Shown piece after piece: positions 19,868 to 29,348 of a stretch of 64,000 bases of DNA (position 1 is the first letter of the stretch; each line of letters starts with the position of its first letter). Source of the stretch: Candidatus Kaiserbacteria bacterium GW2011_GWA2_52_12 (GTDB lineage: Bacteria; Patescibacteriota; Minisyncoccia; Phycocordibacterales; UBA2100); contig LCQW01000006.1 in assembly GCA_001004345.1 (NCBI GenBank), positions 656-64,655 on the forward strand, read 5' to 3'. The translations under genes were made by a program, and so were the position numbers. A model generated the notes under the pieces. It worked only from the letters and a program-made list of their open reading frames with translations, was not told where the DNA came from and made no database searches.

Positions 19868-20896
19868 TCAGAGAGACTTTTTGTAGTGCTCAAGATCGGC
19901 GCGCGTCATCATGCGCACCAATTCTTCGAACGTAACTTTCGGCTTCCAGCCGAGCTCTGTGCGCGCCTTGGTCGCGTCGCCGCAGAGAGCACGTACTTCG
20001 GCGGGACGATAAAATTCTTTGTCTATCGTGACGATGGTCTTGTTGCCCTTCGTGACACCGACCTCTTTGAGACTCTTTCCTTTCCATGTGAGCGGTATAT
20101 CAAGCTCCTTACATGCCTCTTCAACGAAATCGCGCACAGAGTGACTTATGCCGGTGGCGACGACAAAATCGTCCGGTTTTTTTTGCTGGAGCATTGCATG
20201 CATCGCCGTGACATAGTTGCTAGCGTATCCCCAATCGCGCCGCGCATCGAGATTGCCGAGCGAGAAACTTTTTTGCAATCCGAGTTTTATCTTCGCCAGT
20301 GACACCGTGATCTTGCGCGTCACGAAATGCTCGCCGCGGCGCGGCGATTCGTGATTGAAGAGAATGCCGGACGCGATGAAATAACCGTACTGTTCGCGAT
20401 AGCCTTTTACAAAATCCCTATACGCCATGAGCTTCGCCTCGGCATAGGGAGAGACGGGCGCGAAGATGGATCGCTCATTCTGCGGTGGCTTTGTGGTGCC
20501 GAACATTTCGCTGGTCGATGCCTGGTAGATGCGTACCTTCTTATTCACTTTTACCGCTTCGAGAATGAGACGGCTCACGCCGTAATAATTGACCTCCATC
20601 GTTTCCTCGGGACACTTGAACGATATGCCCACGTCGGAGAGCGCCGCGAGATTGTAGACCTCGTCGGGCTTCGCCTCTTCGAGCGCCCGCTGCAGCGAGG
20701 AAGTGTCGCGTAAATTCCCGTATCGCAATTTTAAGGAGCGGTCATCGGCCATTGTATGGATACGCATGAGGGGATCAAGGCTCGTGCGGCGCATGAGACC
20801 CCATACGTCGTATCCTTTTTTTATCAGGTATTCGGCCAAATACGAGCCGTCCTGTCCGGTGATGCCGGTGATGAATGCGCGTTTTTTCTCCTTCAT
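19868..20896 (-). CDS. gmd: GDP-mannose 4,6-dehydratase
   Basis: AFITGITGQDGSYLAEYLIKKGYDV N-terminus and overall GMD-like sequence. Length 342 aa. Confidence 0.85.
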   Translation of the reverse strand: MKEKKRAFITGITGQDGSYLAEYLIKKGYDVWGLMRRTSLDPLMRIHTMADDRSLKLRYGNLRDTSSLQRALEEAKPDEVYNLAALSDVGISFKCPEETMEVNYYGVSRLILEAVKVNKKVRIYQASTSEMFGTTKPPQNERSIFAPVSPYAEAKLMAYRDFVKGYREQYGYFIASGILFNHESPRRGEHFVTRKITVSLAKIKLGLQKSFSLGNLDARRDWGYASNYVTAMHAMLQQKKPDDFVVATGISHSVRDFVEEACKELDIPLTWKGKSLKEVGVTKGNKTIVTIDKEFYRPAEVRALCGDATKARTELGWKPKVTFEELVRMMTRADLEHYKKSL

Positions 20897-20976
20897 GTTG
20901 GCATACTATACTGCCTCGATATGGTTCTGGAAAGCGAATTTCAAAAGGTACCGCATTATGGTATCATGCGGCACTT

Positions 20977-22242
20977 ATGAAAAATAAGATGATAACCCGC
21001 TCAACCTGCAGAATTTCGGGCGAAAAGCTTGTGCCTCTTTTTTCGCTTAACGAGGTACATCTGTCCGATTTCCTCCCCAAAGACGCTTCTCCCCGCTCGA
21101 ACCCCGTGCCGCTCGAGCTCACGCTCGCGCCACGATCCGGTCTGGTCCAGCTGCGCCATACCGCACCTTTTGACGACATGTACAAGGTATATTGGTACCG
21201 CTCGGGCATCAACGAGTCGATGGTCGAGGAGCTGCGGCAGATCGCCGTCTCGGTCACCAAACTCATGCGAGTAGGCAAAAGCGACCTCTGGATAGATATC
21301 GGCTGCAACGACGGTACGCTGCTCTCATTCATCTCGAAAGAAGTGACGCGCATCGGGTACGACCCCAACGACTACAAAGCGATCTCCCAAAAGCATGCAA
21401 ACCTGATAGTCAACGACTATTTCAACGCCAAGGCATTCCGCGCCTCGAAGTATGGAAAGAAGAAAGCGAAAGTTATCACCTCGATAGCGATGTTTTACGA
21501 CCTCGAAGATCCGCATTCCTTCGTGAAAGACGTACGTGATATCTTGGATGATAACGGGCTGTGGGTCATTCAGATGAGCTACCTGCCGCTCATGCTCGCA
21601 CAACTCGCATTCGACAATATCTGCCACGAACATCTCGAGTACTACAGCCTCTCGTCTCTTAAGTACCTGCTCGATAAAAATAATCTCAAGATCGTCGATT
21701 GCCAGCTCAACGACGTGAATGGTGGGAGTTTTCGCATTTACATTCAGAAAAAAGGGGCGGCGGTCTCGAGTTTCGCCTCTGCGCCATATCGCGATGTCGC
21801 CAAGCACCGCGTCGAATCGACGCTCTCATATGAAAAGCAGCTCAAGCTCGACAAGCCGAAGACCTATACCGATTTCTTCAAAAAGGTGTGCGCCCTTCGC
21901 GACCAGACCATTCGCTTCATGCGTGCGAAAAAAAAGAAAGGCAAAAAAATATGGGCGTACGGCGCTTCGACCAAGGGCAATACGCTTCTGCAGTGGTGGG
22001 GCATCGACAATACTCTTGTCGACGGGATAGCTGAACGCTCTCCGGCAAAATTCGGCCTCAAAACAGTCGGGACGAATATTCCCATCACATCGGAAGAAGA
22101 GATGCGAAAAGCAAAGCCTGATTATCTTCTCGTCCTCCCGTGGCATTTCATTGATTCATTTGTGAGCCGCGAACAAACATTCCTCAAGGAAGGTGGCGCA
22201 TTCATCGTCCCCTGCCCGCGCTTCGAGATCATCAAAAAATAA
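20977..22242 (+). CDS. NDP-hexose C-methyltransferase (TylCIII/Methyltransf_13+14 type, with an N-terminal Zn-ribbon)
   Basis: CRISGEKLVPLFSL zinc-ribbon-like N-terminus, a class-I SAM-methyltransferase core (IGCNDGTLL), and a C-terminal C-methyltransferase domain. Start at the MKNKM ATG (20977). Confidence 0.6.
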   Translation: MKNKMITRSTCRISGEKLVPLFSLNEVHLSDFLPKDASPRSNPVPLELTLAPRSGLVQLRHTAPFDDMYKVYWYRSGINESMVEELRQIAVSVTKLMRVGKSDLWIDIGCNDGTLLSFISKEVTRIGYDPNDYKAISQKHANLIVNDYFNAKAFRASKYGKKKAKVITSIAMFYDLEDPHSFVKDVRDILDDNGLWVIQMSYLPLMLAQLAFDNICHEHLEYYSLSSLKYLLDKNNLKIVDCQLNDVNGGSFRIYIQKKGAAVSSFASAPYRDVAKHRVESTLSYEKQLKLDKPKTYTDFFKKVCALRDQTIRFMRAKKKKGKKIWAYGASTKGNTLLQWWGIDNTLVDGIAERSPAKFGLKTVGTNIPITSEEEMRKAKPDYLLVLPWHFIDSFVSREQTFLKEGGAFIVPCPRFEIIKK

Positions 22243-28193: not shown

Positions 28194-28199
28194 GCACTT

Positions 28200-29348
28200 T
28201 TATTTGAAGATGTTTCGTATTGCATCGACCACGTCCTTCACATCCTTGCCAGTGAGGTGCGGCGAGAGCGGGATTGATGCAGTCCTGTCGCCGATCCATT
28301 CGGCATTCGGCAGGTCCCCTTCCTTGTATCCATACGTCTTTCGATAGTACGGGTGCAGGTGGAGCGCGCGGAAATGCACTCCAGTGCCGATGTTCCTCTT
28401 TGCCATTTCATTCAAGAATTGATCGCGTGTCACGTTCGTTGTATCGGTATCGATGAGCACCGTGAACATGTGGTACGCATGGCGGTCTCCTGCTCGAATG
28501 GGAGCGGGCAGGACGATAGGCAGACCCTGCAATTCTTTCATGTACGTATGCCATATCTTTTTGCGCTTTTTCCAATTCTGTTCAATGCGCGCGAGCTGAT
28601 GAATACCGAGAGAGGCCTGAATATCCATCATGTTGTATTTGAAGCCCGCTTCAATGTGCTCATAGTGCTTGTACCCGCTCGTCCCGTACCTATTCCATGC
28701 ATCGACACTCATGCCGTGCAGCGAAAGCGCGCGGCTTCGCTTCATTGCTTCCGCGTCATTCCCTATCAACATGCCGCCTTCTGCGGTTACGAGATTTTTT
28801 ATCGCGTGAAAACTGTAGCACGCAAAGTTGCCGTACGCGCCGACTTTTTTCCCTTTGTATTCCGTCTCAACGGCATGCGCGGCGTCTTGGACTATTTTCA
28901 AATTGTGCTTACGGGCGATGGTAAATATCTCGTCCATATCGCACGCTCTACCGGCCATGTGCACGGGCATGATCGCTTTTGTGCGCGGCGTTATTGCGGC
29001 TTCGATTTCCTTCGGCTCAATGTTCATCGTCGCACGGTTGCAGTCGACAAGTACGGGCGTGGCGCCGCAGTGCACGACCGTATTAGCGGAGGCGCCAAAC
29101 GTCATCGCCGGTACTATCACCTCATCACCCTTACCCACCCCTGCGGCCAGAAGCCCGAGATGCAAGGCTGCGGTACCTGAATTCACCGCGAGTGCATGCT
29201 CTGCGCCAACGTATTTCTTGAAATCCTCCTCAAACCGATGTGTTTTGGGGCCCGTCGTTACCCAACCGCTCTTGAGGGTCTTCACCACCTCATTGATCTC
29301 CTTCGCGTTGAATTGTGGCGCGCCGAATCGTAAAAATGTGGCTCTCAT
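28200..29348 (-). CDS. DegT/DnrJ/EryC1/StrS-family PLP-dependent sugar aminotransferase (perosamine-synthase/PseC-like)
   Basis: NSGTAALHLGL and overall DegT-family sequence. Length 382 aa. Confidence 0.8.
   Translation of the reverse strand: MRATFLRFGAPQFNAKEINEVVKTLKSGWVTTGPKTHRFEEDFKKYVGAEHALAVNSGTAALHLGLLAAGVGKGDEVIVPAMTFGASANTVVHCGATPVLVDCNRATMNIEPKEIEAAITPRTKAIMPVHMAGRACDMDEIFTIARKHNLKIVQDAAHAVETEYKGKKVGAYGNFACYSFHAIKNLVTAEGGMLIGNDAEAMKRSRALSLHGMSVDAWNRYGTSGYKHYEHIEAGFKYNMMDIQASLGIHQLARIEQNWKKRKKIWHTYMKELQGLPIVLPAPIRAGDRHAYHMFTVLIDTDTTNVTRDQFLNEMAKRNIGTGVHFRALHLHPYYRKTYGYKEGDLPNAEWIGDRTASIPLSPHLTGKDVKDVVDAIRNIFK

Follow-up and report, generated by a model that had tools for sequence, protein, structure and literature searches.

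The window analysed here is a 64-kb stretch of DNA from Candidatus Kaiserbacteria bacterium GW2011_GWA2_52_12, in which genes were called by open reading frame (ORF) listing and profile searches. The interval under study, positions 19868 to 29348, encodes Gmd (a 4,6-dehydratase that acts on GDP-mannose), a TylCIII-type sugar C-methyltransferase, a NodU/CmcH-type carbamoyltransferase and a DegT-family aminotransferase, each in a single copy in the window, along with two tandem NUDIX-like paralogues, an AbiEii/AbiEi toxin-antitoxin pair and a GT4 glycosyltransferase. The initial annotation had drawn attention to the co-location of the four enzymes, and all four are found where it placed them, with domain scores far beyond chance. 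Their genes are spread over at least three transcription units on both strands and do not form one operon. The interval is a mosaic of separate units, not a single pathway operon, and the only firmly conserved pathway among the named enzymes is the pair formed by the dehydratase and the C-methyltransferase. Loci of relatives are referred to below by L numbers and homologous proteins by P numbers.

At least 12 glycosyltransferases, many of them GT4, GT2 and GT-C enzymes, are encoded in the window, which also holds NeuB with a CMP-transferase, a Ugd-like domain, an AT3-SGNH O-acyltransferase and an ABC exporter; no polyketide synthase, non-ribosomal peptide synthetase or aglycone genes were found across the 64 kb. 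A DegT fragment 100% identical to the DegT of the window (P0250) carries the name Candidatus Kaiserbacteria bacterium GW2011_GWC2_52, and the named homologues of the methyltransferase and the carbamoyltransferase belong nearly all to Kaiserbacteria, Paceibacterota, Parcubacteria and other Patescibacteria. The whole of these roughly 64 kb is a cell-surface glycan island of Candidatus Kaiserbacteria, an ultra-small groundwater bacterium of the Patescibacteria, and not an antibiotic cluster. The combination of decorations had at first been described as characteristic of antibiotic deoxysugars and not of typical surface glycans. This was mistaken: the glycan island fills the window, the Gmd and C-methyltransferase pair is widespread in environmental glycan loci, and a precedent has been proposed in the virenose of Coxiella lipopolysaccharide (LPS) (PMC3539893). 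A search of the literature for carbamoylated or C-methyl glycans of Patescibacteria turned up nothing relevant.

Gmd and the sugar C-methyltransferase

The gmd gene (19868-20896, minus strand) encodes a protein that matches PF16363 with E=2.8e-122 and passes the threshold of TIGR01472 only just (419.4 bits versus a cut-off of 415); it is of an intermediate subtype. For comparison, L001 has a true Gmd at 498.6 bits on this model and a paralogue at 359.3, below the cut-off. The top PDB matches are all Gmd enzymes (up to 343 bits), and the motifs STSEMFG, YAEAK and NHESPRRG are intact and align with solved Gmd structures (catalytic Thr/Glu, Tyr-x-x-x-Lys and substrate loop). Identity to the Gmd proteins of L002, L085, L087, L165 and L167 is 66-72%. 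In L001 (7858-9905), L003 and L088-L090, two tandem Gmd-like genes adjoin the methyltransferase, where the window has one; of the two, one is a true Gmd and the other, a paralogue, is probably the 4-reductase.

Divergent from gmd lies the gene for a TylCIII/TcaB9-family S-adenosylmethionine-dependent C-methyltransferase (20989-22242, plus strand; PF08484, 1.6e-45; PF13489, 1.1e-15). Its ORF opens at 20875, but the real start is probably 20989, since the 100%-identical protein P0001 (417 aa) begins there; the 455-aa translation from 20875 has no exact-sequence match, and the annotated protein starts 38 codons later. The protein begins MITRSTCRISGEK. It aligns over its full length with TylC3 (4rv9, 152 bits) and TcaB9 (3ndi, 122 bits), both dTDP-sugar C-3 methyltransferases of antibiotic pathways, and shares with them the PF08484 C-terminal domain. 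In TcaB9, of which the mutant structures 4e2w-4e33 are available, Tyr76, His181, Tyr222, Glu224 and His225 are active-site residues. The equivalents of Tyr76, Glu224 and His225 are kept (motif ICHEH), while His181 is replaced by Asp and Tyr222 by Cys. The window's enzyme differs further from TylC3 and TcaB9 in its low identity to them and in having lost the zinc-binding CxxC...CxxC pairs, the first of which reads C-R-I-S and the second of which is absent; the N-terminal zinc domain PF08421 scores 26.7 bits, below its cut-off of 31.3. Family membership and the linkage to Gmd suggest that the enzyme methylates a carbon, and not an oxygen or nitrogen, of a nucleoside diphosphate (NDP)-4-keto sugar. 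The nucleotide would be GDP instead of dTDP, since the partner dehydratase is Gmd.

Relatives of the methyltransferase with 51-77% identity were gathered from 85 loci. In 49 of these a Gmd gene is no more than 5 kb from the relative, as it is in 24 of the 33 loci that have at least 3 kb on both flanks; the next commonest neighbour is an Fcl-like short-chain dehydrogenase/reductase (SDR), seen in 22 loci. When at least 5 kb is required on both sides, 26 loci are left. Nineteen of these have Gmd, accompanied in 14 cases by a second SDR that is either Fcl-like or a Gmd paralogue, and four (L002, L106, L119 and L162) have Gmd as the sole SDR with no aminotransferase. Gmd plus DegT with no second SDR is an arrangement found among these 26 in the window only. 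An ArnB/Per-type DegT occurs in about five of the 84 other methyltransferase loci. Because a second SDR is common and an aminotransferase rare near the methyltransferase relatives, we take the usual order to be Gmd, then C-methylation, then reduction.

A different DegT subgroup, ColD-like, with histidine in place of the lysine, occurs in 12 methyltransferase loci. The metagenomic loci L100, L116, L134 and L150 combine such a ColD-like pyridoxal phosphate (PLP) dehydratase, in which SHH replaces the lysine, with Gmd, an Fcl-like SDR and the C-methyltransferase, a set that may point to a colitose-like, C-methylated 3,6-dideoxyhexose made by uncultured bacteria of freshwater and the sea.

The GDP-linked, C-methyl-branched 6-deoxyhexose predicted by the initial annotation was thus a sound proposal, given how well the Gmd and TylCIII-type pair is conserved. 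Most likely the pair makes a GDP-6-deoxy-C-methylhexose, as has been proposed for Coxiella virenose. The proposed GDP route to the LPS virenose of Coxiella burnetii uses Gmd (CBU0689), a TylCIII-like C-3 methyltransferase and the reductase GMER (CBU0688) (PMC3539893). As in the window, Gmd and a TylCIII-family C-methyltransferase lie there in a surface-glycan locus, and a GDP-6-deoxy-3-C-methylhexose is the predicted product; both pathways are in silico proposals. The two differ in that the Fcl/GMER reductase is next door in Coxiella and none is present in the window, and in that the host here is a patescibacterium without LPS.

The DegT-GT4a cassette and the genes around it

The DegT-family PLP sugar aminotransferase (28200-29348, minus strand; PF01041, E=1.9e-134) belongs to the ArnB/perosamine-synthase clade and has the PLP-lysine motif YSFHAIKN. 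It does not reach the cut-off of the ArnB model NF008658 (413 versus 631 bits). Among PDB entries it scores higher with ArnB (327, 322, 319 and 282 bits) than with perosamine synthase (257 bits), and higher with the C4 aminotransferases ArnB and Per as a group (254-327 bits) than with the C3 enzymes QdtB and DesV (about 195 bits). The GT4a glycosyltransferase gene (27048-28193; PF00534, PF13692) follows 7 bp downstream on the same strand. GT4a is 68% identical to the GT4 behind DegT in L171 and 51-56% identical to the GT4 that stands beside a Gmd-type methyltransferase in L001, L003 and L085.

The two closest homologues of DegT, in L171 (85%) and L005 (81%), are part of an operon that runs AsnB, GalE-like SDR (STASLYG), C-methyltransferase, DegT, GT4. 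The C-methyltransferase there is of another TylCIII clade, 28% identical to that of the window and with its zinc site intact. We regard DegT-GT4a and the convergent nudix201 gene as a conserved portable cassette, because L171 keeps the same arrangement, with identities of 85%, 68% and 66%.

Two tandem NUDIX-like genes lie between the methyltransferase and the carbamoyltransferase. The first, orf198 (22193-22789, plus strand, with an alternative ATG at 22250), has a weak PF00293 match (E=0.04) and weak PDB matches to a NUDIX hydrolase and to GDP-mannose mannosyl hydrolase. The second, nudix201 (22872-23477, plus strand, 201 aa), scores 21.9 bits on PF00293; its top PDB matches are GDP-mannose mannosyl hydrolases, weak at E=0.02. 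The two proteins are paralogues with 27% identity (E=3e-8), and the Nudix box is degenerate in both. Homologues of orf198 adjoin the methyltransferase in L085, L095 and L089, and NUDIX-like relatives more broadly adjoin the methyltransferase or DegT in L001, L085, L095, L120, L168-L171 and L077; the relative in L171, 66% identical to nudix201, is a 202-aa ORF convergent with DegT-GT4. An AlphaFold model of nudix201 made without an alignment has a mean pLDDT of 30, too low for reading the fold. Exactly between the convergent nudix201 and carbamoyltransferase genes, at 23497-23518, there is a strong, GC-rich, 9-bp hairpin with a T-run, which is likely a bidirectional terminator separating two units. 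Overall counts in our promoter and terminator scan were not above those of shuffled sequences, and such sites are used here descriptively only. An Rfam scan of 19000-36000 gave no match.

On the other side of DegT, and divergent from it, begins a run of glycan genes. PMT2a (29407-30858, plus strand; PF13231) is a GT-C (PMT_2/ArnT-like) membrane glycosyltransferase. It is followed on the minus strand by a broken GT2 gene for a Dpm1/ArnC-like polyprenyl-phosphate glycosyltransferase (30847-31427), by a second GT-C glycosyltransferase, PMT2b (31439-33190; PF13231), by a GT4 glycosyltransferase that we call GT4b (33069-34259; PF00534), and by SDR326 (34183-35163), an RmlB-like NDP-glucose 4,6-dehydratase with the motifs STDEIYG and YACSK. 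SDR326 scores 184 bits on TIGR01181, below the cut-off, and its top PDB match is 2hun, a putative dTDP-glucose 4,6-dehydratase (145 bits). The GT2 gene was recognized by tblastn with the GT2 proteins of L167 and L169, whose matches cover only residues 1-77 and 182-244; residues from about 78 to 181, including the DxD region, are missing. The retained ends (77 N-terminal and 63 C-terminal residues) are 69-76% identical to L167, and where the roughly 104 central residues should be encoded there are about 160 nt that are either unrelated or frameshifted. The gene is either a pseudogene or an assembly error.

DegT orthologues at 67-83% identity keep this run, in the order SDR326 or RmlB, (RmlA), GT4b, PMT2b, (GT2), PMT2a, DegT. 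The whole run is present in L167, L169 and the window, and its DegT-proximal part in the short contigs L006 and L019. Orthologues of PMT2a (50-54%) are divergent from DegT in L006, L019 and L167-L170, those of PMT2b (53-61%) occupy the same position in these loci, and those of GT4b (52-69%) are found in L019 and L167-L170. SDR326 has orthologues at 77-78% in L167 and L169; L168 and L170 carry a canonical RmlB (ISTDEVWG) and RmlA there. No C-methyltransferase was found in L006, L019 or L167-L170, and among these loci Gmd occurs only in L167, 8 kb away. Heptose-pathway-like genes, unexpected in bacteria without LPS, lie near the DegT cassette in the Kaiserbacteria-type relatives L005 (13700-17435) and L168-L170 (about 15-21 kb): SIS/GmhA-like, PfkB kinase, cytidylyl/adenylyl-transferase-like, HldD-like epimerase and GT9 heptosyltransferase.

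We also looked at a wider sample of the DegT family, consisting of the 80 closest species-level loci. Most often the neighbours are a Wzx-like flippase, a GT4-like protein or a small methyltransferase. Clustering of these neighbourhoods gave no consistent dehydratase partner, and specificity cannot be read from the family at this breadth. Three of the 80 loci have a true Gmd (about 50% identity) within 10 kb of DegT (L023, L025 and L065), distant members in which it is adjacent to DegT; the distance is 7 kb in the window. No Gmd was found within 10 kb of DegT in L005 and L168-L170, nor in the short contigs L006, L019 and L171.

These comparisons bear on the perosamine-like sugar that the initial annotation had derived by joining Gmd to DegT. 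As in the GDP-perosamine pathway (Gmd plus Per/RfbE, with Caulobacter Per known from 3dr4 and 3bn1), one island contains Gmd and an ArnB/Per-clade aminotransferase. In the window, however, 7 kb separate the two genes, which belong to different units; DegT scores higher with ArnB (327 bits) than with Per (257 bits); and the usual companions of DegT orthologues are an RmlB-like dehydratase (joined by RmlA in two loci), GT4b and GT-C genes and not Gmd or a C-methyltransferase. The direct link is not well supported as it was drawn. A GDP-amino-sugar route as such is still a live rival. The closest DegT homologues stand behind a C-methyltransferase and the L023 operon includes Gmd, which speaks for it; the rarity of ArnB/Per-type DegT in the methyltransferase loci speaks against it. 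We slightly favour the RmlB-like SDR326 as the source of the keto-sugar for DegT, which we would call about an even chance, because the SDR326/RmlB orthologues have no other customer than DegT in L168-L170 and because Gmd and the methyltransferase manage without an aminotransferase in L002 and similar loci. Gmd, or Gmd together with the C-methyltransferase, is a somewhat doubtful source by comparison, and other sources take the remainder. An assignment of DegT to an RmlB/GT-C module alone was also considered and was softened by the C-methyltransferase-DegT-GT4-NUDIX cassette of L171.

The carbamoyltransferase and a later toxin-antitoxin insertion

The carbamoyltransferase (23521-25170, minus strand) is a genuine O-carbamoyltransferase of the TobZ/NovN/NodU family, as had been suspected, with Carbam_trans_N and Carbam_trans_C domains at full length (PF02543, 3.6e-49; PF16861, 1.2e-68). 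Full-length PDB matches to TobZ (313 bits), NovN (292 bits) and GdmN (272 bits) reflect the two-domain architecture, Kae1-like plus YrdC-like, that it shares with these solved enzymes and with NodU. It is not a NodU equivalog, scoring 158.6 bits on NF041651 where the cut-off is 1000, and its acceptor is presumably a cell-surface glycan instead of an antibiotic or Nod factor. The gene has a GC content of 52.5%, like its neighbours, and a promoter-like site just upstream.

Orthologues at 53-70% identity are common in Patescibacteria, in glycan loci of varied content. In L165 the neighbours are Wzx and AT3-SGNH, in L166 they are NeuB and a sulfotransferase, and the contig of P0125 has GDP-heptose genes, methyltransferases and a further C-methyltransferase. 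L171, L001, L085 and L003 lack the gene at the corresponding position, and relative to L171 it sits inside the cassette, between GT4a and the NUDIX gene. Only one of the 84 other methyltransferase loci, L129, has a carbamoyltransferase (37% identity). TobZ, NovN and NodU act on finished acceptors. By analogy with these enzymes, we infer that the carbamoyltransferase is an accessory tailoring enzyme that would O-carbamoylate the growing glycan at a late stage. A functional link between the carbamoyltransferase and a C-methyl sugar glycan is plausible, though not general.

An AbiE-type pair separates the carbamoyltransferase from GT4a. The AbiEii toxin (25478-26191, minus strand) matches PF08843 (6.7e-17; 62.7 bits versus 22.5), and the AbiEi-like antitoxin (26181-26756, minus strand) scores 34.6 bits on NF047376, below the cut-off of 150. 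Both have a GC content of 38-43%, compared with 51% for the window. The pair is flanked by a direct repeat. Copy 1 (25231-25461) consists of 123 nt, an extra 59 nt and 49 nt, and copy 2 (26832-27003) is contiguous at 172 nt; 25231-25353 corresponds to 26832-26954 (123 nt, 98% identity) and 25413-25461 to 26955-27003 (49 nt, 100%). A 43-nt probe from the repeat found only these two copies within the window, and the duplicated spacer has no Rfam match. The low GC content and the flanking 172-nt duplication indicate that the toxin-antitoxin pair was inserted later into the spacer between the carbamoyltransferase and GT4a, and the repeat looks like a duplication of the target or spacer that arose with the insertion. 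The pair resembles AbiE type IV systems in its AbiEii nucleotidyltransferase toxin domain and its upstream, overlapping AbiEi-like gene, and differs from them in the subthreshold antitoxin match and in its insertion within a glycan locus with a flanking duplication.

Elsewhere in the window, the acyl carrier protein (ACP) module to which the initial annotation had referred does exist, upstream at 7114-18765. It comprises two ACP-like ORFs (8135-8380, plus strand; 13388-13660, minus strand), AcpS (11744-12127, minus strand), FkbH (17680-18765), a MaoC dehydratase and a short-chain reductase. An AMP-ligase lies at 9189-10757 and two AAC(3)-like N-acyltransferases at 7114-8112 and 8420-9202, and the module further includes a class I/II aminotransferase and an ABC exporter; L167 has a comparable FkbH-ACP-MaoC-SDR block after DegT. 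At 514-4430 on the minus strand is a nonulosonic-acid set of CMP-transferase, GNAT, NeuB and SDR genes, within which an MbnB/TglH/ChrH-like protein (2016-2792) is an odd neighbour for NeuB. An ORF at 55188-57065 (minus strand) joins a nucleotide-sugar dehydrogenase domain, without about 70 N-terminal profile positions, to a GT4-type domain, and may be a fusion or a decayed Ugd. Just past the glycan genes, at 35420-40895 on the minus strand, are two very large ORFs of 1023 aa (AAA_5 ATPase domain) and 839 aa (transglutaminase core).

Which sugars the locus may build

The model that we favour, tentatively and with slightly less than even confidence, is a two-unit mosaic within the surface-glycan island, with a neutral C-methyl branch and a separate amino-sugar cassette. 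It is built on the gene identities, synteny, co-occurrence counts and insertion anatomy described above; its substrates, order of steps, methylation position and carbamoyl acceptor are predictions from sequence. One unit would consist of gmd and, divergent from it, the C-methyltransferase, orf198 and nudix201. Gmd would convert GDP-mannose into GDP-4-keto-6-deoxymannose, the methyltransferase would add a methyl group beside the keto carbon (most likely at C3, possibly at C5), and the keto group would then be reduced to give a GDP-6-deoxy-C-methylhexose of the evalose/virenose type. The other unit, DegT followed by GT4a with the convergent NUDIX-like gene, would serve, as a portable cassette, for both the synthesis and the transfer of a 4-amino-4,6-dideoxyhexose. 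Using carbamoyl phosphate and ATP, the carbamoyltransferase would act on the cytoplasmic side, modifying a hydroxyl left free on the growing glycan, and the AbiE pair would have arrived later in the spacer, duplicating its 172 nt. The GDP-6-deoxy-C-methylhexose branch in a Kaiserbacteria surface-glycan island is the robust part of this model. A perosamine-like amination of that same C-methyl sugar is possible but not favoured.

Several observations weigh against keeping the two units apart. No orthologue of an Fcl-type reductase was found in the window, where the only matches are weak ones of 22-23% to SDR357 and SDR326; the gene for the reductase may lie in another part of the genome, or a Gmd of this subtype may carry out both reactions. 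There is likewise no RmlA in the window. That the two closest DegT homologues come directly behind a C-methyltransferase fits an aminotransferase using a C-methylated keto-sugar. Gmd and the methyltransferase stand next to NUDIX, GT4a and DegT genes in L001 and L085 as well, with a non-orthologous DegT (41% identical) accompanied by a formyltransferase; L023 has an operon of Gmd, GT4, DegT (57%) and a GT4a-like gene (40%); and in L003 the GT4a relative adjoins only Gmd and the methyltransferase. In L165, which has the closest orthologue of the carbamoyltransferase (70%), a Gmd gene (68%) is only 1.4 kb from it and diverges from the gene for a methyltransferase (74%), truncated where the contig ends, and this neighbourhood makes it possible that the C-methyl sugar itself is carbamoylated.

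The neighbourhoods in L171 and L005, in L001 and L085, in L023 and in L165 also speak for a single pathway in which Gmd, the C-methyltransferase and DegT acting at C4 would yield a GDP-4-amino-4,6-dideoxy-3-C-methylhexose, similar to kansosamine or sibirosamine, to be transferred by GT4a, N-acylated with the help of FkbH and ACP, and O-carbamoylated. Near Gmd and the methyltransferase, no enzyme other than DegT could process the 4-keto group, the GT4a family is always near a C-methyltransferase of either clade, both NUDIX-like proteins weakly resemble GDP-mannose mannosyl hydrolase, and two ACPs, AcpS, FkbH, an AMP-ligase and two AAC(3)-like N-acyltransferases are encoded upstream. We consider this a serious rival that is nonetheless rather doubtful, as a reductase is the usual partner of the methyltransferase relatives and ArnB/Per-type DegT a rare one, L002, L106, L119 and L162 have Gmd and the methyltransferase but neither an aminotransferase nor another SDR, the DegT orthologues in L168-L170 accompany RmlA/RmlB with no Gmd or C-methyltransferase within 10 kb, DegT resembles ArnB more than perosamine synthase, and DegT and the methyltransferase belong to different, convergent transcription units. 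Its fullest form, in which the DegT-GT4a-NUDIX cassette has been plugged in beside Gmd and the C-methyltransferase and the kansosamine-like product is both N-acylated by way of FkbH/ACP and O-carbamoylated, seems to us unlikely.

The remaining readings place DegT, or the whole locus, in quite different company. DegT could be the equivalent of ArnB in an Arn-like modification of a lipid carrier, acting on a UDP-4-keto-pentose, with the GT2 loading undecaprenyl phosphate and a PMT_2 GT-C enzyme transferring the sugar outside the membrane. ArnB is the top family and PDB match of DegT, which is always divergent from a PMT_2 GT-C gene, and, as in the ArnB-ArnC-ArnT system for aminoarabinose modification of lipid A, a Dpm1/ArnC-like GT2 accompanies the GT-C genes, between which it lies in L167, L169 and, broken, in the window; in L169 a GT-C is fused to GT2 with GtrA before it, and the window has the Ugd-like domain. 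This is nevertheless improbable given that the ArnB model is missed by far, that the window has no ArnA-like decarboxylase or formyltransferase, that L168 and L170 have RmlA and canonical RmlB as supply enzymes, and that the GT2, broken here, is missing from four relatives. SDR326 moreover has the T-D-E motif of RmlB and not the T-S-E motif of UXS and ArnA. EvaA, a hexose 2,3-dehydratase, has a Nudix fold, and the substrate of TcaB9, to which the methyltransferase is related, is a 3-amino-4-keto sugar. Both facts invite a vancosamine/tetronitrose-type scheme in which the NUDIX-like proteins are EvaA-like 2,3-dehydratases and DegT amination at C3, C3-methylation and an SDR at C4 would lead to a 3-amino-3-C-methyl-2,3,6-trideoxyhexose; the trio of NUDIX-like, DegT and GT4 genes does recur, joined in L171 and L005 by a C-methyltransferase and an SDR that is not a dehydratase. 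It is very improbable, however, since PF03559 (hexose 2,3-dehydratase) matched none of five NUDIX-like proteins even with E values up to 10 allowed, the PDB matches of orf198 and nudix201 do not include EvaA, and DegT is nearest to the C4 aminotransferases. As for an antibiotic deoxysugar cassette, the C-methyltransferase and carbamoyltransferase do recall the tailoring of noviose by NovU and NovN, and FkbH, ACP and AMP-ligase genes are nearby. Against this stand the lack of aglycone-forming genes in the window and its wealth of glycosyltransferases, GT-C enzymes, NeuB with CMP-transferase, AT3-SGNH and ABC exporter, the reduced genome of the kaiserbacterial host, and the recurrence of the same genes in glycan islands of many Patescibacteria, so that a secondary-metabolite role is hardly credible.

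Should the amino, C-methyl, N-acyl and carbamoyl decorations all turn out to be on one sugar, interest in the locus would rise. It would mean that an ultra-small episymbiotic bacterium displays on its surface a highly decorated, antibiotic-style sugar whose pathway arose by a modular swap of non-orthologous aminotransferases, the DegT described here in one case and the other DegT with its formyltransferase in L001 and L085. By the comparison of loci, a Gmd paired with a TylCIII-like methyltransferase, as is seen widely, marks GDP-linked C-methyl deoxyhexoses of environmental glycans and is not the signature of an antibiotic pathway. The diversification of such an island can be seen at this locus in the swapping of cassettes, the insertion of a carbamoyltransferase, the insertion of a toxin-antitoxin pair with target duplication, and a decayed GT2. 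Patescibacteria are cell-attached organisms with tiny genomes, yet this member spends at least 64 kb on surface sugars, and which unusual sugars it displays, whether C-methyl-branched, amino or carbamoylated, bears on host recognition and on phage evasion.

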